A DNA stretch of 64,000 nucleotides, taken from assembly GCF_003334335.1 (NCBI RefSeq), contig NZ_QOWQ01000001.1, one strand, 5' to 3'. This document shows, piece after piece, positions 26,531 to 55,360 of this stretch (within the stretch, counting starts at the first letter, position 1; the number at the start of each line of letters is the position of its first letter). Origin of the DNA: Escherichia coli (GTDB lineage Bacteria > Pseudomonadota > Gammaproteobacteria > Enterobacterales > Enterobacteriaceae). Under the pieces are notes generated by a model that was not told the origin of the DNA, ran no database searches, and saw only the letters and a list, made by a program, of their open reading frames with translations. The position numbers and the translations under genes are program-made.

Positions 26531-27629
26531 ATGTTTGAAATTAATCCGGTAAATAATCGCATTCAGGACCTCACGGAACGCTCCGACGTTCTTAGGGGGT
26601 ATCTTTGACTACGACGCCAAGAAAGAGCGTCTGGAAGAAGTAAACGCCGAGCTGGAACAGCCGGATGTCTGGAACGAACCCGAACGCGCACAGGCGCTGG
26701 GTAAAGAGCGTTCCTCCCTCGAAGCCGTTGTCGACACCCTCGACCAAATGAAACAGGGGCTGGAAGATGTTTCTGGTCTGCTGGAACTGGCTGTAGAAGC
26801 TGACGACGAAGAAACCTTTAACGAAGCCGTTGCTGAACTCGACGCCCTGGAAGAAAAACTGGCGCAGCTTGAGTTCCGCCGTATGTTCTCTGGCGAATAT
26901 GACAGCGCCGACTGCTACCTCGATATTCAGGCGGGGTCTGGCGGTACGGAAGCACAGGACTGGGCGAGCATGCTTGAGCGTATGTATCTGCGCTGGGCAG
27001 AATCGCGTGGTTTCAAAACTGAAATCATCGAAGAGTCGGAAGGTGAAGTGGCGGGTATTAAATCCGTGACGATCAAAATCTCCGGCGATTACGCTTACGG
27101 CTGGCTGCGTACAGAAACCGGCGTTCACCGCCTGGTGCGTAAAAGCCCGTTTGACTCCGGCGGTCGTCGCCACACGTCGTTCAGCTCCGCGTTTGTTTAT
27201 CCGGAAGTTGATGATGATATTGATATCGAAATCAACCCGGCGGATCTGCGCATTGACGTTTATCGCGCGTCCGGCGCGGGCGGTCAGCACGTTAACCGTA
27301 CCGAATCTGCGGTGCGTATTACCCACATCCCGACCGGGATCGTGACCCAGTGCCAGAACGACCGTTCCCAGCACAAGAACAAAGATCAGGCCATGAAGCA
27401 GATGAAAGCGAAGCTTTATGAACTGGAGATGCAGAAGAAAAATGCCGAGAAACAGGCGATGGAAGATAACAAATCCGACATCGGCTGGGGCAGCCAGATT
27501 CGTTCTTATGTCCTTGATGACTCCCGCATTAAAGATCTGCGCACCGGGGTAGAAACCCGCAACACGCAGGCCGTGCTGGACGGCAGCCTGGATCAATTTA
27601 TCGAAGCAAGTTTGAAAGCAGGGTTATGA
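26531..27629 (+). CDS. prfB: Peptide chain release factor 2, translated with a programmed +1 ribosomal frameshift at codon 26
   Basis: Frame from ATG 26531 reads [25 protein letters not shown] then hits in-frame TGA at 26606; the +1 frame continues [11 protein letters not shown]... and is the ORF-track frame 26748..27629; GGQ motif present. Confidence 0.9.
26594..26609 (+). promoter_or_regulatory. prfB: prfB autoregulatory +1 frameshift site (internal Shine-Dalgarno plus CTT TGA C slippery/stop context)
   Basis: AGGGGG at 26594-26599, 3 nt spacer, CTT at 26603-26605, TGA at 26606-26608, C at 26609. Confidence 0.9.
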
Positions 27630-31530: not shown

Positions 31531-31881
31531 GTTTTTGCGAGGAAGGGGAGTTAGAGACAGGAATTGCGGAGGCAATCACATAATCGTGGTTAAACCACGA
31601 AAATGAGAAGAGAACCTGACAATGGAATTATCTGTAATTTTCTCATATTGATATTTCATTAATCATTCTGGCATGTCGCACTCTCGCATTTAATCGTTTT
31701 TATCTGGATAGCGCTCTTTTGATCGGCAATGTTGAAATAATGAAAGCGGCATAGATTGAGGGGCAATAATTTGAACTCAGTCGCAAAATTATAATTAAAA
31801 CGGTCATGCTACCTAATATATGCCCGTTTATTGCATCGCGAAATTTGAGAAGACATAACTCATTAAATGAAAGGGATGCAA

Positions 31882-46600: not shown

Positions 46601-46753
46601 ACAGGTTTCACCGAAGACGCTAACAGTTTTACCTTTTACAGGTGAGTAAAACTGTTGCTCGGGAATACCAAAGATTGAGCGTTGTTGTTGGTATTCATCA
46701 AATATGCGCGTCAAAAGTTCCTCAAACGGAATGGGACGCATAATATCCCCCAT
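43655..46753 (-). CDS. ygfK: Large Fe-S flavoprotein oxidoreductase (dihydropyrimidine dehydrogenase / glutamate synthase beta-like); putative selenate-reductase-associated subunit
   Basis: ORF track 43655..46753 (-), 1032 aa; [20 protein letters not shown] dinucleotide motif; C-terminal CLECNYVCSKCVDVCP and CNECGNCAQFCP ferredoxin clusters. Confidence 0.85.
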   Translation of the reverse strand: MGDIMRPIPFEELLTRIFDEYQQQRSIFGIPEQQFYSPVKGKTVSVFGETCATPVGPAAGPHTQLAQNIVTSWLTGGRFIELKTVQILDRLELEKPCIDAEDECFNTEWSTEFTLLKAWDEYLKAWFALHLLEAMFQPSDSGKSFIFNMSVGYNLEGIKQPPMQQFIDNMMDASDHPKFAQYRDTLNKLLQDDAFLARHGLQEKRESLQALPARIPTSMVHGVTLSTMHGCPPHEIEAICRYMLEEKGLNTFVKLNPTLLGYARVREILDVCGFGYIGLKEESFDHDLKLTQALEMLERLMALAKEKSLGFGVKLTNTLGTINNKGALPGEEMYMSGRALFPLSINVAAVLSRAFDGKLPISYSGGASQLTIRDIFDTGIRPITMATDLLKPGGYLRLSACMRELEGSDAWGLDHVDVERLNRLAADALTMEYTQKHWKPEERIEVAEDLPLTDCYVAPCVTACAIKQDIPEYIRLLGEHRYADALELIYQRNALPAITGHICDHQCQYNCTRLDYDSALNIRELKKVALEKGWDEYKQRWHKPAGSGSRHPVAVIGAGPAGLAAGYFLARAGHPVTLFEREANAGGVVKNIIPQFRIPAELIQHDIDFVAAHGVKFEYGCSPDLTIEQLKNQGFHYVLIATGTDKNSGVKLAGDNQNVWKSLPFLREYNKGTALKLGKHVVVVGAGNTAMDCARAALRVPGVEKATIVYRRSLQEMPAWREEYEEALHDGVEFRFLNNPERFDADGTLTLRVMSLGEPDEKGRRRPVETNETVTLLVDSLITAIGEQQDTEALNAMGVPLDKNGWPDVDHNGETRLTDVFMIGDVQRGPSSIVAAVGTARRATDAILSRENIRSHQNDKYWNNVNPAEIYQRKGDISITLVNSDDRDAFVAQEAARCLECNYVCSKCVDVCPNRANVSIAVPGFQNRFQTLHLDAYCNECGNCAQFCPWNGKPYKDKITVFSLAQDFDNSSNPGFLVEDCRVRVRLNNQSWVLNIDSKGQFNNVPPELNDMCRIISHVHQHHHYLLGRVEV

Positions 46754-46826
46754 AACCCTCTCCTTAGCTTATACAGATATCATTGAGTGACCGGTGTTGA
46801 GAAATCCGGTGGTTTAGGGGGATAGA

Positions 46827-46841
46827 GCAACAATCGCACCA
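46827..46841 (-). promoter_or_regulatory. Weak candidate sigma54 promoter upstream of ygfK
   Basis: Reverse strand reads TGGTGC-GATTG-TTGC (GG and GC at correct spacing, two mismatches in the -24 box), about 75 nt upstream of the ygfK start. Confidence 0.2.
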
Positions 46842-47074
46842 CTCTTGCCAGGTTTGGCGGGAAATATAAAAAAATGTGAGGCGGCTCGAAACTTAAGGGC
46901 TTTTTGTGAATGAACTCACAGGTGCTAAATGAGAATTAAAATCACTCCTGAAAATTATTATTGCCAGCCCATTTATCAATTTTTCTCTTTTCTCAAAATC
47001 AGTGATTCCTTATCATTATGATAATGAGTGCCGGAAGGATTAAATATTTGAACGCAATCGTTTAACTACGTTTT

Positions 47075-47653
47075 CTAAATTTCAGTATACCTTTCCTTCG
47101 CTGTAATAAAGTCGTCCGGAGTATCAATATCTAAAATTATTTCTGCATTTTCTATTTCGACGGAATAATGATCTCCCATAAGGAGTGCCTGACGCATATT
47201 GGTGACATTGGGTCGTTGGATTGCCTGCATCAGGCATGGTTTTGACACTAAAATCGGATGGCCGGGGATGCCATTATGGAGTGGCAGTATTGCGCCATCA
47301 TTTCGTAACGACCAGATTTTTCTAAAAATATCGATGGTGAGGGTTGGCATGTCACCGTGGGTGAGAAAACAATGTTCTGTTTGCACTGCGGGTACTGCGG
47401 CCTTGACGGATGTTAGTAAACCCTGCGCATAATCTGGGTTGTGAATAATAGTGATATTGCTCTGGTTCGCATAACGTTCGTGCAGTTCATTACCACGATA
47501 GCCGGTGACTAAAATAATTCGGCTACAAAACTGCAACGCATTTTTGATACTTGTATCAAGAATTGTTCCCTGTTCCCAGGGTAACATCATTTTCCATTGC
47601 CCCATTCTTGATGATAATCCGGCAGCGGTAATTATACAGTCGATGGCTGACAT
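47075..47653 (-). CDS. mocA: Molybdenum cofactor cytidylyltransferase (MobA-like NTP-transferase)
   Basis: ORF track 47075..47653 (-), 192 aa; MSAIDCIITAAGLSSRMG nucleotidyltransferase signature. Confidence 0.8.
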   Translation of the reverse strand: MSAIDCIITAAGLSSRMGQWKMMLPWEQGTILDTSIKNALQFCSRIILVTGYRGNELHERYANQSNITIIHNPDYAQGLLTSVKAAVPAVQTEHCFLTHGDMPTLTIDIFRKIWSLRNDGAILPLHNGIPGHPILVSKPCLMQAIQRPNVTNMRQALLMGDHYSVEIENAEIILDIDTPDDFITAKERYTEI

Positions 47654-47755
47654 AGTGGTTCCATTATTTATAGGGGCTAATAACGCCTGATAATTGCGTT
47701 ACTTCCTGATGGATTAAGTTGGGGATAATTTATCCCAGAGAGGTCATAAAGACTC

Positions 47756-48526
47756 GTGAAAAGTATAGTTGACCCATCGGCATTAGTCATTGATTTAGGT
47801 GCGCAGAAACGTCCCACTGTGATTTCTGTTGTTGGTGCTGGGGGGAAAACCAGCTTGCTTTTTTGGCTGGCAGAACTGCTCCAGGCTAGCGGCAGGCGTG
47901 TGTTAATCACGACGACGACACATATGTTTATGCCAACGTCTCACTGGCCCGTGGTTTTCTGTCGTGATCCCGCCATGCTTCCTCATGCGTCTCTTACATC
48001 CCCCATTTCATTTTGTTTTCACAGCTGGAAAGCGAACCAGGGAAAAGTGCAGGGATTTACGCCAGAAGCGATTGATGCACTGGTGCAACGACCAGAGTGT
48101 GACGTAATTCTCATTGAAGCAGATGGCTCGCGTGGAATGCCGTTAAAAGCGCCTGATGAGCACGAACCTTGCATACCCAAAAGCAGTTGCTGCGTGATTG
48201 CTGTGATGGGAGGACATACTTTGGGCGCGAAAGTGAGCACAGAAAATGTCCATCGCTGGTCGCAGTTTGCTGATATTACCGGGTTAACACCTGATGCAAC
48301 CTTGCAACTGAGCGATCTCGTTGCGCTGGTTCGCCACCCTCAGGGGGCGTTTAAAAACGTACCGCAAGGTTGTCGGCGAGTCTGGTTCATTAACCGTTTT
48401 TCTCAATGTGAGAATGCGATTGCACAAAGCGAGCTCCTTCAACCGCTGCAACAACACGACGTAGAGGCAATCTGGCTGGGCGATATACAAGAACATCCTG
48501 CAATCGCGCGCAGATTTGTGAATTAG
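47756..48526 (+). CDS. yqeC: Selenium-dependent molybdenum hydroxylase maturation protein YqeC (P-loop)
   Basis: ORF track 47756..48526, 256 aa, GTG start; VVGAGGKTSLL P-loop. Confidence 0.75.
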   Translation: MKSIVDPSALVIDLGAQKRPTVISVVGAGGKTSLLFWLAELLQASGRRVLITTTTHMFMPTSHWPVVFCRDPAMLPHASLTSPISFCFHSWKANQGKVQGFTPEAIDALVQRPECDVILIEADGSRGMPLKAPDEHEPCIPKSSCCVIAVMGGHTLGAKVSTENVHRWSQFADITGLTPDATLQLSDLVALVRHPQGAFKNVPQGCRRVWFINRFSQCENAIAQSELLQPLQQHDVEAIWLGDIQEHPAIARRFVN

Positions 48527-48573
48527 CGGCCCGGGTATTCCGGGTTACTGAAAGGATATCCATTGAGGTTGGT

Positions 48574-50199
48574 ATGAATATTTTCACAGAGGCTGCAAAA
48601 CTCGAAGAGCAAAATTGTCCGTTTGCTATGGCGCAAATTGTTGATAGCCGAGGCTCGACTCCCCGCCATTCTGCACAAATGTTAGTGCGCGCCGATGGTT
48701 CTATCGTCGGTACAATTGGTGGCGGAATGGTTGAGCGGAAGGTGATTGAAGAGTCGCTTCAGGCATTGCAGGAACGTAAGCCGCGATTATTCCATGGACG
48801 TATGGCTCGTAACGGTGCGGATGCTGTCGGGTCAGATTGTGGAGGTGCAATGTCAGTATTTATCAGCGTCCATGGTATGCGTCCACGTCTGGTGTTGATT
48901 GGCGCGGGGCATGTCAACCGGGCGATAGCCCAGAGTGCGGCGCTATTAGGATTTGATATTGCCGTTGCTGATATTTATCGCGAAAGCCTCAATCCTGAAC
49001 TATTCCCACCATCAACCACGCTTCTCCATGCTGAGTCGTTTGGTGCGGCAGTGGAAGCACTGGATATTCGCCCTGATAATTTTGTCCTGATTGCCACGAA
49101 TAATCAGGATCGTGAAGCCCTCGACAAACTCATTGAACAGCCCATTGCATGGTTGGGGTTGCTGGCAAGTCGTCGCAAGGTTCAGCTTTTCCTGCGTCAA
49201 TTGCGTGAGAAAGGCGTGGCTGAAGAACATATTGCCCGTTTACATGCGCCCGTTGGTTACAACATAGGTGCGGAAACGCCGCAGGAGATCGCCATCAGCG
49301 TGCTGGCAGAAATATTACAGGTGAAAAATAACGCGCCGGGTGGGCTGATGATGAAACCTTCTCATCCTTCCGGACACCAGCTGGTGGTGATTCGCGGTGC
49401 GGGAGATATCGCCAGTGGTGTGGCGCTACGTCTGTATCATGCGGGTTTTAAAGTGATCATGCTGGAAGTGGAAAAACCGACAGTGATTCGTTGTACCGTG
49501 GCGTTTGCCCAGGCCGTGTTCGATGGCGAAATGACGGTCGAAGGCGTCACTGCTCGCCTGGCAACCAGCTCTGCGGAAGCGATGAAACTTACCGAACGCG
49601 GATTCATTCCTGTGATGGTAGATCCCGCCTGTTCATTGCTTGATGAACTGAAACCGCTTTGCGTGGTGGACGCTATTCTGGCGAAACAGAATTTGGGAAC
49701 GCGGGCAGATATGGCACCAGTAACAATCGCGCTTGGGCCGGGCTTTACTGCTGGGAAGGATTGTCATGCGGTAATTGAAACAAATCGCGGGCACTGGCTC
49801 GGTCAGGTGATTTACTCTGGTTGTGCGCAGGAGAATACCGGTGTTCCTGGCAATATTATGGGGCATACCACCCGACGGGTGATCCGTGCTCCTGCTGCAG
49901 GCATTATGCGATCCAACGTGAAATTAGGCGATCTGGTGAAAGAGGGCGATGTGATTGCCTGGATTGGTGAGCATGAAATTAAAGCACCGTTGACGGGGAT
50001 GGTGCGTGGCTTGTTGAACGACGGCCTGGCAGTGGTTGGTGGTTTTAAAATTGGTGATATCGATCCTCGTGGTGAAACCGCTGATTTCACCAGCGTTTCT
50101 GATAAAGCCCGGGCGATTGGCGGCGGCGTACTTGAGGCGTTAATGATGTTGATGCATCAGGGCGTGAAAGCGACAAAAGAAGTGCTGGAAGTGGCTTAA
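48574..50199 (+). CDS. yqeB: XdhC/CoxI-family accessory protein YqeB (selenium-dependent molybdenum hydroxylase system)
   Basis: ORF track 48574..50199, 541 aa; Rossmann-like LIGAGHVNRAIAQ and VVIRGAGDIASGVA segments. Confidence 0.75.
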   Translation: MNIFTEAAKLEEQNCPFAMAQIVDSRGSTPRHSAQMLVRADGSIVGTIGGGMVERKVIEESLQALQERKPRLFHGRMARNGADAVGSDCGGAMSVFISVHGMRPRLVLIGAGHVNRAIAQSAALLGFDIAVADIYRESLNPELFPPSTTLLHAESFGAAVEALDIRPDNFVLIATNNQDREALDKLIEQPIAWLGLLASRRKVQLFLRQLREKGVAEEHIARLHAPVGYNIGAETPQEIAISVLAEILQVKNNAPGGLMMKPSHPSGHQLVVIRGAGDIASGVALRLYHAGFKVIMLEVEKPTVIRCTVAFAQAVFDGEMTVEGVTARLATSSAEAMKLTERGFIPVMVDPACSLLDELKPLCVVDAILAKQNLGTRADMAPVTIALGPGFTAGKDCHAVIETNRGHWLGQVIYSGCAQENTGVPGNIMGHTTRRVIRAPAAGIMRSNVKLGDLVKEGDVIAWIGEHEIKAPLTGMVRGLLNDGLAVVGGFKIGDIDPRGETADFTSVSDKARAIGGGVLEALMMLMHQGVKATKEVLEVA

Positions 50200-50206
50200 A
50201 TGAAAA

Positions 50207-50414
50207 TGGCCGGATGGTATTACCCACCCGGCCTGAGACTGATGACAAACGCCAAATTGCCTGATGCGCTACGCTTATCAGGCCTACAAGTGCATTGCAA
50301 TCTATTGAATTTGCGATGTTTTGTAGGACGGATAAGGCGCTCGCGCCGCATCCGGCATCAACAAAGCGCACTTACTTGACAATCTTTGGCCGGATGGTAT
50401 TACCCACCCGGCCT
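50207..50414. repeat. REP pair flanked by two identical 28-bp near-palindromic direct repeats, filling the yqeB-yqeA convergent spacer
   Basis: TGGCCGGATGGTATTACCCACCCGGCCT at 50207-50234 and again at 50387-50414; between them GCCTGATGCGCTACGCTTATCAGGCCTAC and TGTAGGACGGATAAGGCGCTCGCGCCGCATCCGGCA. Confidence 0.75.
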
Positions 50415-50419
50415 TTAAA

Positions 50420-51352
50420 TTACTGACAAATCACCGTTCCTGTTTTGCCTTCAATCCCTTCTTTCGCTTTGCTCAATACGGTAATCAGTGCTTCACGACC
50501 TGCGCGAGAGCGAGCAAACGAGGCGGCAGCTTCCACTTTAGGCAGCATAGAACCTTTCGCAAAATGACCTTCTTCGATAAAGCGTTCAGCATCACTTAAT
50601 GACAGGCGATCGAGCCACTGTTCATTCTCTTTACCGAAGTTAATGGCCACTTTTTCTACCGCAGTCAGAATGATCAGCATATCGGCATCAATCATTTCTG
50701 CTAAACGGGCGCTGGCCCAGTCTTTATCGATAACCGCGCTGGCACCACGCAGATGGTTACCTTCACGAATAACAGGGATACCACCACCGCCAACGGTGAT
50801 CACCACCTGACCTGCATCTACCAGAGCTTTAACCGTTTCTTTTTCAATGATATCAACCGGTTTTGGCGAGGCAACAACACGGCGATAGCCGCGACCAGCA
50901 TCTTCTTTCAGAGTGTAACCCTGTTTTGTCAGTTGCTCTGCTTCTTGCTCGGTAAAGAACGAACCGATCGGCTTGGTCGGGTTGAGGAATGCCGGATCGT
51001 TAGCGTCGACTTCGACCTGAGTAACCAGCGTTGCTACAGGTTTATTAATGCCCCGAGAAAGCAGTTCTTCTCTTAAAGCGTTTTGTAGATCGTAACCAAT
51101 ATAACCCTGGCTTAATGCAACACAGACAGACATCGGCAGCATTGGCGAGTGCGCTTCAGTTTTTGCGGCAGCTTCAAAGGCCTGGTTAATCATGCCCACC
51201 TGCGGCCCGTTACCATGAGTGACGATAACTTCATGTCCCTGGGCAATTAAATCAACAATTGCCTGAGAAGTAATTTTTACCGCTTTCATTTGCCCGGCCA
51301 GGTCATCGCCCAGCGCATTCCCGCCCAGGGCGAGAACAATTTTCTTACTCAT
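50420..51352 (-). CDS. yqeA: Carbamate kinase-like protein
   Basis: ORF track 50420..51352 (-), 310 aa; MSKKIVLALGGNALG amino-acid-kinase N-terminus. Confidence 0.85.
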   Translation of the reverse strand: MSKKIVLALGGNALGDDLAGQMKAVKITSQAIVDLIAQGHEVIVTHGNGPQVGMINQAFEAAAKTEAHSPMLPMSVCVALSQGYIGYDLQNALREELLSRGINKPVATLVTQVEVDANDPAFLNPTKPIGSFFTEQEAEQLTKQGYTLKEDAGRGYRRVVASPKPVDIIEKETVKALVDAGQVVITVGGGGIPVIREGNHLRGASAVIDKDWASARLAEMIDADMLIILTAVEKVAINFGKENEQWLDRLSLSDAERFIEEGHFAKGSMLPKVEAAASFARSRAGREALITVLSKAKEGIEGKTGTVICQ

Positions 51353-51399
51353 TTTTCCTCACTCATCATTCTTGATTGTGTATAGATCCCTGGCAGTGG

Positions 51400-52785
51400 T
51401 TAGAGCACGGGAGGGACAAACGGTTTGCGTCGCAGGAAACGACCTCGCCCGGCTTTGCCTGTAAAGGTGCCGTCACAGAAAATCGTTTCACCACGGGATA
51501 AGGTTCTGACAATCGCGCCCTGACAGGTAAAACCCTCCCATGGCGAGTAGTCGGCGTTGTCGTGGAGATGGCGATGCTGAATTTGTTGGCTCTGACGTGG
51601 GTCGATAATCACCACGTCGCCGTCGGAACCGGGCGCTAATAATCCTTTTTGCGGCCACAGGCCAAACAACCTGGCGGGCATTGCGCTGGTTAATTCAACA
51701 AAGCGTTCCGGTGTTATACGTCCCGTCATCACGCCACTGGAAAACAGTAACTGCATGCGGTTTTCCACACCGGGTAAGCCATTTGGGCAGCGACTGAAAT
51801 CGCCTTTAGAAATTTGCAGGCGTTGAGCCATCGAGAAGGTGCAGTGATCGGTTGCCACCACGTCAATCGCACCATCGCTGATGCCACACCACAGTTTGTC
51901 CTGCTCGCGTACGTTACGCAGCGGTGGGCTAAGAATGAACTTCATGCCATCTTCTGTATCGTAACTGCGTTCGTCCAACAGGAGATATTGTGGGCAGGTT
52001 TCAACCCAGACTGGCTGGTGATTCGCACGGGCAAGACGCAGATAATCCAGACCTAAGCCGTTAGACAGGTGCACGATATAGAGCGGGGCGTTACCGGCAA
52101 TTTGTGCCAGGTTAATCATGCGGGCGATGGCTTCCGCTTCGCATTCCAGAGGGCGACTCAAGGCATGATAGCGCGGCGCGGTTAACCCTGCGGCGATAAA
52201 TTCCGCCCGCTTGCTGGCGATAGCCGCATCATTTTCCGGGTGCACGGTGGTCAGCGCGCCGGATTCATGCAAGCGGCGTAATGCCTGCAAAACCTCGTCA
52301 TCGTTGAGTTTGTATTGATAGGTTAAATAGAGTTTAAAACTGCTCAGTCCTTCCTCGACCATCATCGGGATTTCGTCGAGGATTGCGTGATTAATGTGCT
52401 GGATCACACCGTGAAAGCTGTAATCGATGACCGCTTTATGGGCGGCATAACCACGATAAACCTCCAGTTGATGGCGTAACCGACAGCCGTTTGGGCCAAA
52501 TCCCATATGGTCAATAATGGTTGTTGTACCGCCACACGCAGCTGCGCGGGTACCGGTAAAAAAATCATCACAACTGCGCGCGATGCCGACATCAATATTG
52601 AAATGCGTATGGACATCCACGCCGCCAGGGAAAACGTAACAGCCAGTGGCATCAATTTCTTCATACGGGAGCTGCGGCGAAATATTGTTGCCCAACTGGC
52701 GAACAATCCCGCTTTCAATCAGCAAATCCTGTTTGGCTTGTCCATCTGCGTTAACGACAGTGCCGTTTTTGATCAATACGCGCAT
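51400..52785 (-). CDS. hyuA: Hydantoinase/dihydropyrimidinase-family cyclic amidohydrolase
   Basis: ORF track 51400..52797 (-); start set at MRVLIKNGTVVNADG (461 aa); DVHTHF metal motif. Confidence 0.85.
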   Translation of the reverse strand: MRVLIKNGTVVNADGQAKQDLLIESGIVRQLGNNISPQLPYEEIDATGCYVFPGGVDVHTHFNIDVGIARSCDDFFTGTRAAACGGTTTIIDHMGFGPNGCRLRHQLEVYRGYAAHKAVIDYSFHGVIQHINHAILDEIPMMVEEGLSSFKLYLTYQYKLNDDEVLQALRRLHESGALTTVHPENDAAIASKRAEFIAAGLTAPRYHALSRPLECEAEAIARMINLAQIAGNAPLYIVHLSNGLGLDYLRLARANHQPVWVETCPQYLLLDERSYDTEDGMKFILSPPLRNVREQDKLWCGISDGAIDVVATDHCTFSMAQRLQISKGDFSRCPNGLPGVENRMQLLFSSGVMTGRITPERFVELTSAMPARLFGLWPQKGLLAPGSDGDVVIIDPRQSQQIQHRHLHDNADYSPWEGFTCQGAIVRTLSRGETIFCDGTFTGKAGRGRFLRRKPFVPPVL

Positions 52786-52837
52786 AGCAAACTCCAAAAA
52801 CCCTCCGGCGAACCGGAGGGGAATAAGTGAAGAGTAA

Positions 52838-54049
52838 TTACTCTGTTGCCAGCCAGCTTAACGGGATTGCAGCGTACATCGCGGCACAGGTCACCAGGTG
52901 AGATTTCCAGGTTTTTTCGTTAGGTGCATGCGCTTCAGGTTCTTTACCCGGGCCAAAGCCGATCACCGGAATGCCGTGACGGCCCATGATAGATACGCCG
53001 TTAGTTGAGAAGGTCCACTTATCAACAACCGGCGCTTTGCCAAACAGCCCTTCGTAGGCATTCACCAGTGCTTTAACGGTGAAGTGATCTTCTTCCACTT
53101 TCCAGGTCGGGAAGTAGCATTCGGTTGGGTAAACCAGGCCAGTCCAGGACGGACGGTCGTAGTTGTACATAGAAACAACCGCGTTAGCTTTCTGTACTGC
53201 AGGCAGGGCGCGGATTTCGTCCAGCGCGCCTTCCCAGGTTTCGCCCCAGGTCAGACGACGGTCGATTGAAACTGCGCAGCTGTCTGCTACAGCGCAACGG
53301 CTTGGGGATGTGAAGAAGATTTCAGAAACGGTGAGGGTGCCTTTGCCGAGGAATTCGTCATAACCCAGACGTTGGGAGAGTTCTTGTAATTCGCCAAGAA
53401 TCGGACCCATTTTGAAAATGGCGTTATCACCGCGTTCTGGTGCAGAACCGTGGCAGCTAACACCCTGAACATCAATACGAATTTCCATACGACCGCGCTG
53501 ACCACGGTATACCTGGCAGTCGGTTGGTTCGGTACTGACCACAAATTCCGGGCGAATGCCGGATTGTTCAATAATGTACTGCCAGCACAGACCGTCGCAG
53601 TCTTCTTCCTGCACCGTACCGGTAACCAGCAGGGTATATTCATCTTCCAGACCGAGGTCTTTAATGATTTTACCGGCATAAACCATAGAGGCCATGCCAC
53701 CTTCCTGGTCGGAAGTACCGCGACCACCAATCAGTTCATCAGTTTCCATGCCTTCGTACGGATCGAAGTCCCAGTTTTTGATGTTGCCAATGCCGACGGT
53801 ATCGATATGAGCGTCCATTGCCACCAGACGCGGGCCGTGGCCGATATAACCGAGAACGTTGCCCATCGGGTCGATTTCAACTTTATCGAAGCCGACTTTT
53901 TCCATCTCTTCTTTAATACGATGTACTACGCGTTTCTCGTCGCAGCTTTCACTGGGAATAGCAACCATGTCGCGCAGGAAGCGAGTCATATCCGCCTGGT
54001 AATCTTTTGCTTTTTCAAGAATCAGTTTGAATGGAATATTCTTAGCCAT
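52838..54049 (-). CDS. ygeY: M20-family metallopeptidase / amidohydrolase
   Basis: ORF track 52838..54049 (-), 403 aa; ArgE/DapE-like pattern ([14 protein letters not shown]). Confidence 0.8.
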
Positions 54050-54106
54050 TATTTTTCTCCAGATTTTTTACTCCCCGTTTTGCAGGGAGCAGTTCCAATA
54101 GGGTGA

Positions 54107-55303
54107 TTAAGGTGCTACAGCGTGTTTGCCTTCCCAGACAACTTCGCGGTAGTGCTTCACGTCGGTGTCGCCTTCAGTGCTGATAACCAGCACCACGGCA
54201 TCTTTGTTCAGCGCCAGTTTTTCCATCAGGCTTTGACGTTGCGGGTGATAATGAACCGCTGCGAGAACGCCCAAACCGACAGCGCCGGATTCACCGGAGA
54301 TGATGCGCGGGTCGTTGCCGTACGGATTACCCAGCACGCGCATACCTAATGCGGCAACGCTGTCCTGGCAGGAGATGAATTGGGTGGCGCAGTTACGTAG
54401 GATTTCCCAGCCCAGCGGGTTAGGTTCGCCACAGGCCAGGCCTGCCATGATGGTGGCCATATCACCGCCAACGTTGACGATGTCGCCTTTGACGCCGGAG
54501 CGATAAATACAGTCAGCTTTGTCAGGTTCAACAATAATGCTGTGCAGATTTTGCGGGCTATAGACGTCGACCAGATAACCCAGCACACCACCGGCCATTG
54601 CTCCGACACCGGCTTGCAGCAGAACGTGCGTCGGGGTTACGCCCATTTCACGCATTTGCTCGACGGCTTCATCTGCCAGGGTTGCGTAGCCTTGCATGAT
54701 CCAGGTTGGGATTTTGGTGTAACCTTCCCATGCCGTGTCCTGTACCACTTCCCAGCCGTGCTGCTGCGCGTGTTGCATGGTCAGGCGAACGGTATCGTCA
54801 TAGTTCATATCCGTGACGATGCACTCGGCACCGAGGTTCAGAATGGCGTCAACGCGTTCCTGAGCAGAACCTTTCGGCATGTAAATCACCGCATTCTGTC
54901 CGAGTTGCTGTGCTGCCCACGCCACACCGCGCCCGTGGTTGCCGTCGGTGGTGGTCGCGAAAGTCATTTTTTCGCCGATGGCATTTTTCAGGTGCTCAAA
55001 TGACAGCGTTTCGATATCAAGATGATATTTTTCACACAATAATTGAGCGATGGCGTACGCACCGCCAAGCATTTTGAAGGCGTTCAGACCGAATCGTTTT
55101 GATTCGTCTTTGACGAGAATTTTCTTCACACCAAAAAGGTTTGCGAGATCGTCCAGCGCACAAAGCGGTGTTGGGCGATAACCAGCTATTTTCTGGTGGA
55201 ACTGGCGCGCCAGTTTGGCCTGGCTTTGCGAAAAGAGCGGTGATGTTTCGCCGTTGAAAAATTTGTTATCGGCGATATCAATCTTCAATGAGAAAACGGA
55301 CAT
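54107..55303 (-). CDS. dpaL: 2,3-diaminopropionate ammonia-lyase (PLP-dependent)
   Basis: ORF track 54107..55303 (-), 398 aa; PLP fold-type II features (KDESKRFGLNAFKMLG). Confidence 0.8.
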   Translation of the reverse strand: MSVFSLKIDIADNKFFNGETSPLFSQSQAKLARQFHQKIAGYRPTPLCALDDLANLFGVKKILVKDESKRFGLNAFKMLGGAYAIAQLLCEKYHLDIETLSFEHLKNAIGEKMTFATTTDGNHGRGVAWAAQQLGQNAVIYMPKGSAQERVDAILNLGAECIVTDMNYDDTVRLTMQHAQQHGWEVVQDTAWEGYTKIPTWIMQGYATLADEAVEQMREMGVTPTHVLLQAGVGAMAGGVLGYLVDVYSPQNLHSIIVEPDKADCIYRSGVKGDIVNVGGDMATIMAGLACGEPNPLGWEILRNCATQFISCQDSVAALGMRVLGNPYGNDPRIISGESGAVGLGVLAAVHYHPQRQSLMEKLALNKDAVVLVISTEGDTDVKHYREVVWEGKHAVAP

Positions 55304-55360
55304 ATCCTATCCTTTTGGCCTCTGGAAATAGAGGGCCGACCAGCTGATCGGCCCGAGGGG

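Follow-up and report, generated by a model that had tools for sequence, protein, structure and literature searches.

The mocA, yqeC and yqeB genes of Escherichia coli probably act together as accessory machinery that completes the molybdenum cofactor, including a labile selenium ligand, for XdhD-YgfM and XdhABC, the putative xanthine-oxidase-family clients in the anaerobic purine/urate catabolic cluster. A selenium hypothesis for this locus is already known from Haft & Self 2008 and Zhang et al. 2008 (PMC2276186, PMC2432076), the E. coli locus being a founding example of their accessory system (EF2563 TIGR03309, EF2564 TIGR03172 and TIGR03310). The locus agrees with the published system in its three families, in its purine/urate gene neighbourhood and in having a genomic selD, with no difference in sequence. 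The preliminary description of this DNA, which predicted a cytidine dinucleotide cofactor with a labile selenium ligand for at least one hydroxylase, is supported in its checkable elements but adds nothing beyond the 2008 hypothesis, and the finding is a known opportunity, in print for E. coli since 2008, rather than a new one. Of the routes by which biology uses selenium, its placement on the molybdenum cofactor is understood least; in gut bacteria the enzymes in question power the anaerobic breakdown of urate and purines, which affects uric-acid levels in the host. With its complete gene set and easy genetics, E. coli K-12 makes this locus well suited to answering the question, and three details may be useful for the design of experiments, namely the two-module architecture of YqeB, the recurrent fusion of YqeC to MocA and the separate sigma-54 transcription of yqeB.

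The locus and its genes

The window, a stretch of 64,000 nucleotides, is E. coli K-12 DNA, and the 3125 bp that hold the trio are 100% identical to MG1655. Of 5426 complete E. coli genomes, 5159 carry at least 80% of it, and its genes are named mocA, yqeC and yqeB in RefSeq. Positions, divergent spacer and gene identities stand as first described; all three proteins score above the cut-offs of their curated NCBI families and the two motifs that had been picked out are present, ITAAGLSSRMG as residues 8-18 of MocA and VVGAGGKTSL as residues 25-34 of YqeC. The trio does lie between two hydroxylase operons (Table 1), with xdhD-ygfM-ssnA-ygfK adjoining mocA on the left and xdhCBA 8.6 kb to the right, past the arcC-hyuA-ygeY-dpaL-ygeW operon and ygeV. 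As the same description had it, no in-frame TGA is seen; none of the 22 genes from uacT to xdhA has an internal stop codon, so that no gene of the cluster encodes a selenocysteine enzyme, and an Rfam search of the cluster found no RNA family.

Table 1. Coordinates of the genes, modules and regulatory sites discussed (positions in the window)
Feature	Position	Strand	Remarks
xdhD-ygfM-ssnA-ygfK	38627-46753	-	adjoins mocA on left
xdhD-ygfM, candidate client hydroxylase (uric acid -> 2,8-dioxopurine reductase)	38627..42273	-	RefSeq annotation; PMC12507026
Sigma-54 promoter of ygfK-ssnA-ygfM-xdhD operon, in 321-bp gap downstream of mocA	46826..46842	-	OS31, PMC4591121
ATCATAATGATA, variant of the 12-mer recurring upstream of the cluster's sigma-54 promoters; candidate enhancer site	47011..47022	-	
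mocA (ygfJ), CTP:molybdopterin cytidylyltransferase (makes MCD)	47075..47653	-	192 aa, ATG start; ORF list, TIGR03310, Pfam
mocA/yqeC divergent spacer	47654..47755		exactly 102 bp
yqeC, SIMIBI-class P-loop NTPase, marker of the 'selenium cofactor' trait	47756..48526	+	256 aa, GTG start
Sigma-54 promoter TGAGCACGAACCTTGCA within yqeC, drives yqeB mRNA	48157..48173	+	published site, located in window
yqeB, whole gene	48574..50199	+	541 aa; ORF list
yqeB N-terminal half, XdhC-like Moco-binding/insertion chaperone module	48574..49365	+	residues 1-264; Pfam, PDB relatives
yqeB C-terminal half, YqeB-family domain (TIGR03309, EF2563-type)	49384..50151	+	residues 271-526
xdhCBA, second candidate client hydroxylase (xanthine dehydrogenase)	58845..62507	-	RefSeq annotation

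Two modules in YqeB

YqeB had been described as XdhC/CoxI-like, which holds for its N-terminal half by Pfam (XdhC_CoxI at residues 12-74, XdhC_C at 106-247) but overlooks the C-terminal domain that defines the family. The protein is a fusion, in which the N-terminal module alone is XdhC-like. This module has PDB relatives in 2we7 and 3on5, and by its Pfam domains belongs to the XdhC superfamily, yet it is not an equivalog of classical XdhC, scoring 110.8 bits against a TIGR02964 cut-off of 161.6. The C-terminal domain covers the whole TIGR03309 profile (1-256 of 256) at 417 bits, the cut-off being 220. Both Pfam XdhC domains are shared with the XdhC/PaoD/CoxF chaperones (R. capsulatus XdhC, E. 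coli PaoD), whereas the extra domain of 270 residues is lacking from XdhC and PaoD and, unlike chaperones of this type, YqeB does not share a transcript with one particular hydroxylase. It has been proposed as a common XdhC-like chaperone for XdhABC and XdhD (PMC2997495). Accordingly placed in a pathway, the N-terminal half would bind MCD (molybdopterin cytosine dinucleotide) and pass it to the apo-hydroxylase, E. coli seeming to have no other XdhC-type chaperone for XdhD and XdhABC.

The C-terminal domain may then mediate the SelD-dependent installation of a labile terminal selenium ligand while the chaperone half holds the cofactor, as restriction to selD-positive genomes, fusion or adjacency of the modules and clostridial genetics suggest. 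The domain is 53-60% identical across phyla and contains invariant Asp, Glu, Arg, Lys and His but no invariant cysteine. A cysteine perselenide relay is therefore unlikely, and the invariant residues suggest instead that the domain directly binds some charged small molecule, such as selenophosphate or the cofactor; this chemistry is one that we infer and no more. Searches of the PDB with the YqeB sequence and profile gave nothing matching the whole C-terminal domain, only generic Rossmann and lipoyl-domain matches. Use of the lipoyl/biotinyl-like barrel as a swinging-arm carrier was ruled out, as the hairpin position is without a conserved lysine.

These same features bear on a different account, in which the trio matures ordinary Mo=S MCD enzymes in E. 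coli, XdhD and XdhA carry no selenium and both YqeC and the C-terminal domain of YqeB handle the cofactor in some other way. We consider this unlikely. It gains from the absence of an invariant cysteine for a selenium relay and from the conventional XdhC-like character of the N-terminal half, a kind of module with a sulfuration role in R. capsulatus (PMC2997495), but the extreme conservation of the C-terminal domain argues for one conserved chemistry.

Gene neighbourhood and selD

An association of YqeB and YqeC with selenium-dependent molybdenum hydroxylases had been put forward for this locus; it rests on the published families, and its neighbourhood part was reproduced in an independent test on 80 loci encoding the YqeB C-terminal domain, drawn from at least 590 species genomes. 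In most of the 80 the domain has yqeC beside it together with an XdhC-like module, as a gene or as a domain. An XdhC-like module is fused to it in 19/80 (Proteobacteria and spirochaetes) and is a separate gene of the same locus in about 47/80, usually within ~1 kb, as in Collinsella, Clostridia and an archaeon. Hydroxylase or urate-pathway genes were present in most yqeB loci with sufficient flanking sequence, the neighbours of yqeB in other genomes being yqeC, xdhC-like genes, mocA, a hydroxylase, the urate-pathway genes hyuA, ygeY, dpaL and ygeW, and sometimes selD.

The last of these lies within 2 kb of yqeB in seven of the 80 loci, and TIGR03309 has been reported from selD-positive genomes only, across very different niches (PMC2276186). 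Both observations weigh against maturation of plain Mo=S enzymes, under which the selD link would reflect shared anaerobic purine-fermenting lifestyles or matter only in other lineages. In MG1655 selD is annotated on the same chromosome (L003 10589-11632), 1.16 Mb from the cluster. Being distant and also serving selenocysteine and selenouridine, unlike that of E. faecalis, it leaves genome context in E. coli unable to isolate a third selenium trait.

That the trio serves selenate reduction or detoxification, with YgfK-YgfM-XdhD (YgfN) as a selenate reductase that the accessory proteins would mature, is very improbable. RefSeq still labels YgfK a 'putative selenate reductase subunit', and the idea was discussed by Haft & Self citing Bebien 2002 (PMC2276186). 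Against this, the distribution of selenate-reductase homologues does not follow that of TIGR03309 and selD (PMC2276186), yqeB travels with the urate-pathway genes in other genomes, and biochemical work has assigned YgfK and XdhD to urate degradation, XdhD reducing urate to 2,8-dioxopurine and YgfK reducing the product further (bioRxiv 10.1101/2025.04.24.650524, PMC12507026). These urate roles and the genomic distribution largely refute the selenate-reductase reading.

Client hydroxylases and selenium

Most of the best PDB relatives of XdhD and XdhA are MCD-type enzymes (aldehyde oxidoreductase MOP, CO dehydrogenase, quinoline oxidoreductase and PaoC), and these outrank the R. capsulatus and bovine XDH. 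PaoC has been confirmed as MCD-type (PMC2997495). An attempt to pick the selenium enzyme by similarity to 3hrd (nicotinate dehydrogenase, a selenium enzyme) was uninformative, XdhD and XdhA being about equally distant from it and both nearer to 4-hydroxybenzoyl-CoA reductase. Physiologically, a ΔxdhA strain leaves xanthine unconsumed (PMC12507026).

Genetic and biochemical indications of selenium come from clostridia. Growth of C. difficile on xanthine and urate requires yqeB, and a ΔyqeB strain phenocopies selD mutants (PMC11448449), while 2,8-dioxopurine dehydrogenase (DOPDH) of C. sporogenes obtained from a selD mutant had lost all activity (bioRxiv 10.1101/2025.04.24.650524). This shared purine phenotype and the dead urate-reducing enzyme again oppose a Mo=S-only role. 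XdhD of E. coli and the C. difficile enzyme given the same role share only ~25% identity (PMC12507026), so that selenium dependence is carried over from clostridia by function and not by close orthology.

Labelling studies with 75Se found a DTT-labile protein of 30 kDa, the size of YqeB or YqeC, in E. faecalis, and in E. coli DTT-stable bands of 80-110 kDa only, under conditions unlikely to induce the cluster (PMC2432076). To degrade urate, E. coli requires formate as well as electron carriers for which a dependence on formate dehydrogenase has been proposed. That dehydrogenase contains selenocysteine, and could itself account for a selenium need on urate. The requirement for added Mo and Se for growth on urate in both Proteobacteria species tested (bioRxiv 10.1101/2022.12.12.520169) is therefore confounded, as it may reflect this enzyme instead. 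Also on the side of selenium-free clients, E. coli XdhD has been purified in active form with selenium supplementation unmentioned, and a labile-selenium enzyme in E. coli is undemonstrated (PMC2276186, PMC2432076), in the words of Haft & Self 'not yet observed'. A literature search found no report of selenium in E. coli XdhD or XdhABC, and no data on the activities of these enzymes in E. coli yqeB, yqeC or selD mutants.

MocA and YqeC

MocA matches the TIGR03310 equivalog at 214.2 bits (cut-off 186.45), residues 5-184 covering 1-187 of the 188 profile positions, and Pfam NTP_transf_3 spans residues 6-143. Its translation carries TAAGLSSRMG at residues 9-18 and GLLTS at 78-82. These are reportedly cytosine-specific motifs that replace LAGGxxxRMGG and GPLAG of MobA, a point credited to Neumann et al. 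2011 in JBC. Work in E. coli by others, cited as Neumann 2009 in PMC10845959 and PMC2997495, shows MocA to be a CTP:Mo-MPT cytidylyltransferase; in the proposed pathway this is the first step, MocA joining CMP to Mo-molybdopterin to give MCD.

YqeC scores 240.9 bits against TIGR03172 (cut-off 73.05) and matches PF19842 with an E value of 5.5e-42. It is a SIMIBI-class P-loop NTPase, a fold class that also holds UreG, HypB, CooC, NifH and MobB. Across 60 sequences of the family the Walker A P-loop (G27, G29, G30, K31) is invariant, and the full set of invariant residues comprises the P-loop, TTTT, EADG, K131, E137-P138 and G197. An N[KQ]xD motif resembling that for guanine specificity is found in the family to varying degrees (N in 58/60, K in 38/60, D in 44/60); E. 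coli YqeC is without it, having N-R-F-S at residues 213-216, and its membership stands all the same since the motif is a majority feature and not a defining one. PDB searches with the YqeC sequence and profile gave no solved structure, only generic P-loop matches. Compared with the metallocentre-insertion NTPases UreG, HypB, CooC and MeaB, YqeC differs in having no conserved metal-binding Cys/His motif.

The fold of YqeC and its recurrent fusions to MocA and YqeB suggest that the NTPase couples or gates the hand-off from MocA to YqeB, much as MobB accompanies MobA, and YqeC may be dispensable. It is possible, though doubtful, that YqeC is no selenium factor but an NTPase partner of MocA in MCD synthesis and hand-off, the counterpart of MobB, and that selenium is handled by the C-terminal domain of YqeB alone. 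Among the 150 best cluster representatives there were 10 YqeC-MocA and 5 MocA-YqeC fusions, one YqeC-YqeB and one YqeC-MocA-YqeB, so that YqeC and MocA are joined, in both orders, in 16, mirroring the bifunctional MobA/MobB proteins; the NCBIfam PRK14489 (MobA/MobB bifunctional) models were matched in this survey. The mocA(-)/yqeC(+)-yqeB(+) layout is kept in eight proteobacterial genera, and mocA and yqeC are also neighbours in C. difficile. In both systems a MobA-like nucleotidyltransferase is accompanied by a small P-loop protein of the SIMIBI class, encoded next to it or fused to it. mobB is dispensable in E. coli, which parallels the behaviour of yqeC in C. difficile. There, a ΔyqeC strain showed no phenotype (PMC11448449), and Haft & Self suggested that YqeC and YgfJ serve a smaller subset than YqeB (PMC2276186).

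Other evidence ties YqeC to YqeB instead. The two are joined directly, without MocA, in P0340, yqeC adjoins yqeB in loci where mocA was not detected, and phylogenetic profiling ranks YqeC with YqeB and selD (PMC2276186, PMC2432076). Likeness to MobA-MobB also has its bounds: MocA uses CTP, in difference from the MobA-MobB system of bis-MGD synthesis, while YqeC exceeds MobB by ~100 residues, carries motifs not shared with it (TTTT, EADG, KAP..HEP) and is a closer match to SRP-type GTPases, MobB being absent from its top structural matches.

A tentative refinement of the selenium-cofactor reading, on which we would not place much weight, departs from the 'selenium cofactor biosynthesis' names and divides the labour so that YqeC is the NTPase partner of MocA, a counterpart of MobB free of selenium, all selenium chemistry resides in the C-terminal domain of YqeB and the supply of yqeB is set separately. 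The cysteine-free, highly conserved C-terminal domain, with a Rossmann-like part and a lipoyl-like barrel, would then act on MCD held in the XdhC-like half.

Transcription of the trio

The catabolic operons flanking the trio each have their own sigma-54 promoter. A search with the generic consensus TGGCAC-N5-TTGCW, allowing one mismatch, gave 2 matches, below chance, and the published sigma-54 sites were therefore located by exact sequence. OS31 falls in the gap downstream of mocA, giving ygfK its own sigma-54 promoter there. The 102-bp mocA/yqeC spacer has no sigma-54 site and no CTCATATTGATA motif, and the consensus scan showed only weak sigma-70-like matches in it, with no excess over shuffles (7 against 5.3 expected); for the trio the scan for sigma-70 promoters and terminators gave no excess over shuffled sequence.

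The preliminary description took yqeC-yqeB as a simple pair, but yqeB has a sigma-54 promoter of its own within yqeC. This promoter has been validated by ChIP, promoter mutation, qRT-PCR and Western blot (PMC4591121). Expression of the trio is in this way tied to the sigma-54 control of the cluster, with yqeB transcribed from inside yqeC. The -12 element CCTTGCAT is identical in E. coli and in 11/11 related proteobacterial yqeC genes. Under the division of labour outlined above, the embedded promoter, conserved at synonymous codon positions, would set the supply of the YqeB C-terminal domain separately in Proteobacteria. At 47011..47022 the candidate enhancer site in E. coli is a variant of the recurring 12-mer, and the exact 12-mer is found at the equivalent place in Kluyvera and Cedecea.

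Gene content and genomic setting

The window is DNA of E. coli K-12. The identities and positions given for mocA, yqeC and yqeB in the preliminary description were confirmed by the open reading frames (ORFs), by the curated family cut-offs and by RefSeq, which annotates the same three genes at 47075-50199. A search of complete E. coli genomes found this 3125-bp segment to be 100% identical in MG1655 and several other strains, and it was present at a coverage of at least 80% in 5159 of 5426 genomes. No match to the trio was found in 250 of the 5426, and a single plasmid-borne copy was seen among the complete genomes. The divergent spacer between mocA and yqeC is exactly 102 bp by ORF coordinates, as had been reported, and the peptide signatures quoted for MocA and YqeC both occur in the translations. 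The trio does lie between two hydroxylase operons, adjoining that of xdhD and standing 8.6 kb from xdhABC. It had also been stated that the hydroxylases are not selenocysteine enzymes, and this holds: from uacT to xdhA all 22 genes are free of internal stop codons, and an Rfam scan detected no RNA family within the cluster.

Two RefSeq names within the cluster, "putative selenate reductase subunit YgfK" and "D-phenylhydantoinase" for hyuA, are outdated, as both proteins were assigned to reductive urate degradation by biochemistry published in 2025 (bioRxiv 10.1101/2025.04.24.650524; PMC12507026). The old selenate-reductase reading, which the YgfK name still echoes, is accordingly left with very little probability. 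In the convergent gap between yqeB and arcC a pair of REP-like units is bracketed by two identical copies of a GC-rich 28-nt hairpin sequence, TGGCCGGATGGTATTACCCACCCGGCCT.

Features of the cluster and its surroundings (coordinates in the window)
Feature	Position	Strand	Remark
SIB antitoxin RNA with ibsC	5848-5998		as annotated in E. coli
6S RNA (ssrS)	6647-6830		as annotated in E. coli
naRNA4-type element	20341-20418		as annotated in E. coli
prfB with programmed frameshift	26531-27629		as annotated in E. coli
xanQ-guaD-ghxQ, ygfT-ygfS, uacT			farther left than xdhD operon
CTCATATTGATA copy	31642-31653	+	upstream of ygfT sigma-54 promoter
sigma-54 site, ygfT	31819-31835	+	published site
xdhD-ygfM-ssnA-ygfK	38627-46753	-	left neighbour of trio
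ygfK	43655-46753
sigma-54 site, ygfK	46826-46842	-	published site
CTCATATTGATA variant ATCATAATGATA	47011-47022	-	gap beside mocA, 169 bp upstream of ygfK sigma-54 promoter
mocA	47075-47653	-	192 aa (ORF table)
yqeC	47756-48526	+	256 aa, GTG start (ORF table)
sigma-54 site inside yqeC	48157-48173	+	published site
YqeC residues 213-216	48392-48403
CTCACATTGAGA	48401-48412	-	3' part of yqeC
yqeB	48574-50199	+	541 aa (ORF table)
TGGCCGGATGGTATTACCCACCCGGCCT, first copy	50207-50234
TGGCCGGATGGTATTACCCACCCGGCCT, second copy	50387-50414
arcC-hyuA-ygeY-dpaL-ygeW	50420-56548	-	right of trio
hyuA	51400-52785
sigma-54 site, ygeW	about 56641-56657	-	published site
CTCATATTGATA copy	56860-56871	+	ygeW/ygeV gap, upstream of sigma-54 promoter
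ygeV	57027-58805		sigma-54 activator gene, right of trio
xdhCBA	58845-62507		right of trio
sigma-54 site, xdhA	62563-62579	-	published site
CTCATATTGATA copy	62677-62688	-	upstream of xdhA sigma-54 promoter
tRNA-Gly	63756-63826		as annotated in E. coli

The three proteins

Pfam matches agreed with the NCBI curated assignments for all three proteins. MocA, a MobA-like nucleotidyltransferase by Pfam, scored 214 bits against its family model TIGR03310 (curated equivalog cut-off 186) and carries the motifs TAAGLSSRMG (residues 9-18) and GLLTS (residues 78-82). Addition of CMP to Mo-molybdopterin by E. coli MocA, giving molybdopterin cytosine dinucleotide (MCD), was shown by Neumann et al. 2009, as cited in PMC2997495 and PMC10845959.

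YqeC scored 241 bits against TIGR03172 (cut-off 73). Throughout its family the P-loop G-x-G-G-K-T is invariant, as are a TTTT run, EADG and KAP..HEP. An N-[KQ]-x-D motif resembling the box for guanine specificity in GTPases is found in most members, with N in 58 and D in 44 of 60 sequences. The E. coli protein has N-R-F-S at this position (residues 213-216), so that it may depart from most of the family in its preference for nucleotides.

YqeB scored 417 bits against TIGR03309 (cut-off 220). Its description as XdhC/CoxI-like applies to residues 12-74 and 106-247, which match Pfam XdhC domains, and does not extend to the whole protein, which is a fusion. The XdhC-like part matches the solved XdhC-like proteins 2we7 and 3on5 and falls below the cut-off for classical XdhC equivalogs, while the family-defining TIGR03309 domain occupies residues 271-526. 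This C-domain is remarkably conserved: the E. coli sequence is 53-60% identical to those of Moorella, spirochaetes and Collinsella, with invariant motifs that include RGAGD, VDAILAKxN, LGPGF, IETNRGH, GDIDPRG and SDKA. In full-length numbering, E408, R411 and H413 are invariant residues of IETNRGH, and D501, D503 and R505 of GDIDPRG. No invariant cysteine was found in the C-domain alignment, so the domain is probably not a perselenide relay and more likely binds a charged small molecule. Comparison of the N- and C-halves of YqeB detected no relatedness.

Co-occurrence and gene fusions

When one genome per species was scanned with the alignment of the YqeB C-domain, relatives turned up in at least 590 genomes, and the best 80 loci were examined using the E. 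coli proteins as tblastn probes. The neighbourhood side of the co-occurrence that had been asserted for YqeB and YqeC was borne out, with yqeC and an XdhC-like module beside the YqeB domain in most of the 80. The module was fused to the domain in 19 of these loci (Proteobacteria and spirochaetes); in Collinsella, Clostridia and an Archaeoglobi genome a separate XdhC-like gene lay in the same locus, usually within ~1 kb. The divergent arrangement of mocA and yqeC-yqeB was kept in Kluyvera, Cedecea, Edwardsiella, Aeromonas, Photobacterium, Morganella, Endozoicomonas and a Rhodocyclaceae genome. Frequent neighbours of yqeB were the urate pathway genes hyuA, ygeY, dpaL, ygeW, arcC, ssnA and ygfK, together with hydroxylase subunits. 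selD was found no more than 2 kb from the YqeB domain in seven of the best 80 loci, and in E. coli it is 1.16 Mb from the trio.

YqeC had 4799 relatives in a search of 1.84 billion cluster representatives. Among the best 150, 10 fusions were YqeC-MocA, five MocA-YqeC and one YqeC-YqeB, and one further representative was a triple fusion, YqeC-MocA-YqeB. MocA, YqeC and YqeB are thus physically linked by fusions. Occasional fusion of MobA-related and XdhC proteins to these families had been noted before by Zhang et al. 2008 (PMC2432076), so the counts confirm and quantify rather than discover.

Selenium and maturation of the hydroxylases

The preliminary description had proposed that the trio matures an MCD hydroxylase carrying a labile selenium ligand, and sequence and literature, as far as they go, support this interpretation. 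It was already known, as Haft and Self (PMC2276186) listed the same E. coli genes and published the same prediction, which was made independently by Zhang et al. (PMC2432076); the locus was among the examples on which the "third selenium utilisation trait" was founded. The candidate clients are XdhD, which reduces urate to 2,8-dioxopurine, and XdhA, which oxidises xanthine (PMC12507026). The XdhC-like half of YqeB would hold MCD and insert it into one or both, as proposed in PMC2997495, its C-domain would depend on SelD to place the labile selenium ligand, and YqeC would couple MocA to YqeB through nucleotide hydrolysis.

Studies on other organisms lend support. The 2,8-dioxopurine dehydrogenase purified from a C. 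sporogenes selD mutant had zero activity (bioRxiv 10.1101/2025.04.24.650524). In C. difficile a yqeB deletion resembled selD mutants on xanthine and urate, and a yqeC deletion had no phenotype (PMC11448449). Growth on urate required added Mo and Se in both species of Proteobacteria tested (bioRxiv 10.1101/2022.12.12.520169), and in E. faecalis DTT-labile 75Se was associated with a 30-kDa protein, the size of YqeB or YqeC (PMC2432076). Overall the full selenium-MCD maturation model is judged somewhat probable for E. coli.

The alternative is that in E. coli the ligand is sulfur only, which is considered unlikely. The literature search found no selenium measurement for E. coli XdhD or XdhABC, nor results on their activities in E. 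coli selD, yqeB or yqeC mutants. The selenium requirement for growth on urate is confounded evidence: urate degradation by E. coli uses formate and electron carriers that have been proposed to rely on formate dehydrogenase, and that is a selenocysteine enzyme. Comparison with the PDB placed XdhD and XdhA both closest to 4-hydroxybenzoyl-CoA reductase and to the MCD-type enzymes MOP, CODH, Qor and PaoC. Both are about equally distant from the selenium enzyme nicotinate dehydrogenase, and solved structures single out neither hydroxylase. With the C. difficile enzyme of the same assigned role, E. coli XdhD shares only ~25% identity (PMC12507026).

Regulation by sigma-54

Of the sigma-54 sites mapped by Bonocora et al. 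2015 (PMC4591121), those upstream of ygfT, ygfK, ygeW and xdhA and one within yqeC were located in the window. The site inside yqeC was identified as the yqeB promoter by promoter mutation, qRT-PCR and Western blot, and its mutation left YqeB protein undetectable. From these sites it follows that yqeC-yqeB is no simple two-gene unit, and that the 321-bp gap downstream of mocA holds a sigma-54 promoter dedicated to the ygfK operon. In 2015 the authors could see "no obvious connection" of YqeB with nitrogen limitation; the connection is plain given that the cluster takes purines to ammonia (bioRxiv 10.1101/2025.04.24.650524; PMC12507026).

The promoter inside yqeC coincides in part with the codons of the invariant HEP. 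When yqeC was compared across L004-L015, loci of other genomes, 11 of 11 other gamma- and beta-proteobacterial genes examined shared the -12 element of E. coli, CCTTGCAT (Pro CCT, Cys TGC), unchanged even at synonymous positions. Endozoicomonas is the proteobacterial exception, having Val or Leu and lacking TTGC like the spirochaetes and Firmicutes examined. This pattern suggests that the promoter is under selection in addition to the protein, and promoter and coding sequence within yqeC appear to have co-evolved. A tentative joint reading, rather doubtful as a whole, is that YqeC is a MobB-like partner of MocA and not a selenium factor, that the selenium chemistry lies wholly in the cysteine-free YqeB C-domain, and that supply of this domain is set separately by the conserved promoter inside yqeC.

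In the 64-kb window the exact 12-mer CTCATATTGATA is present three times, where ~0.008 copies would be expected by chance. A mapped sigma-54 promoter lies 98-203 bp downstream of each copy, and the variant ATCATAATGATA lies beside mocA. Kluyvera, Cedecea, Edwardsiella and Photobacterium carry the motif at the corresponding intergenic positions. It is a candidate enhancer or binding site for the sigma-54 activator YgeV, the regulon of which is still termed putative in the literature; a literature search found no published YgeV motif. A two-mismatch copy, CTCACATTGAGA, follows the yqeC-internal sigma-54 promoter at a distance of ~230 bp and may be due to chance. One-mismatch copies in two Aeromonas yqeC (position 2629 of locus L007 and 9027 of locus L010) are offset roughly as is CTCACATTGAGA.
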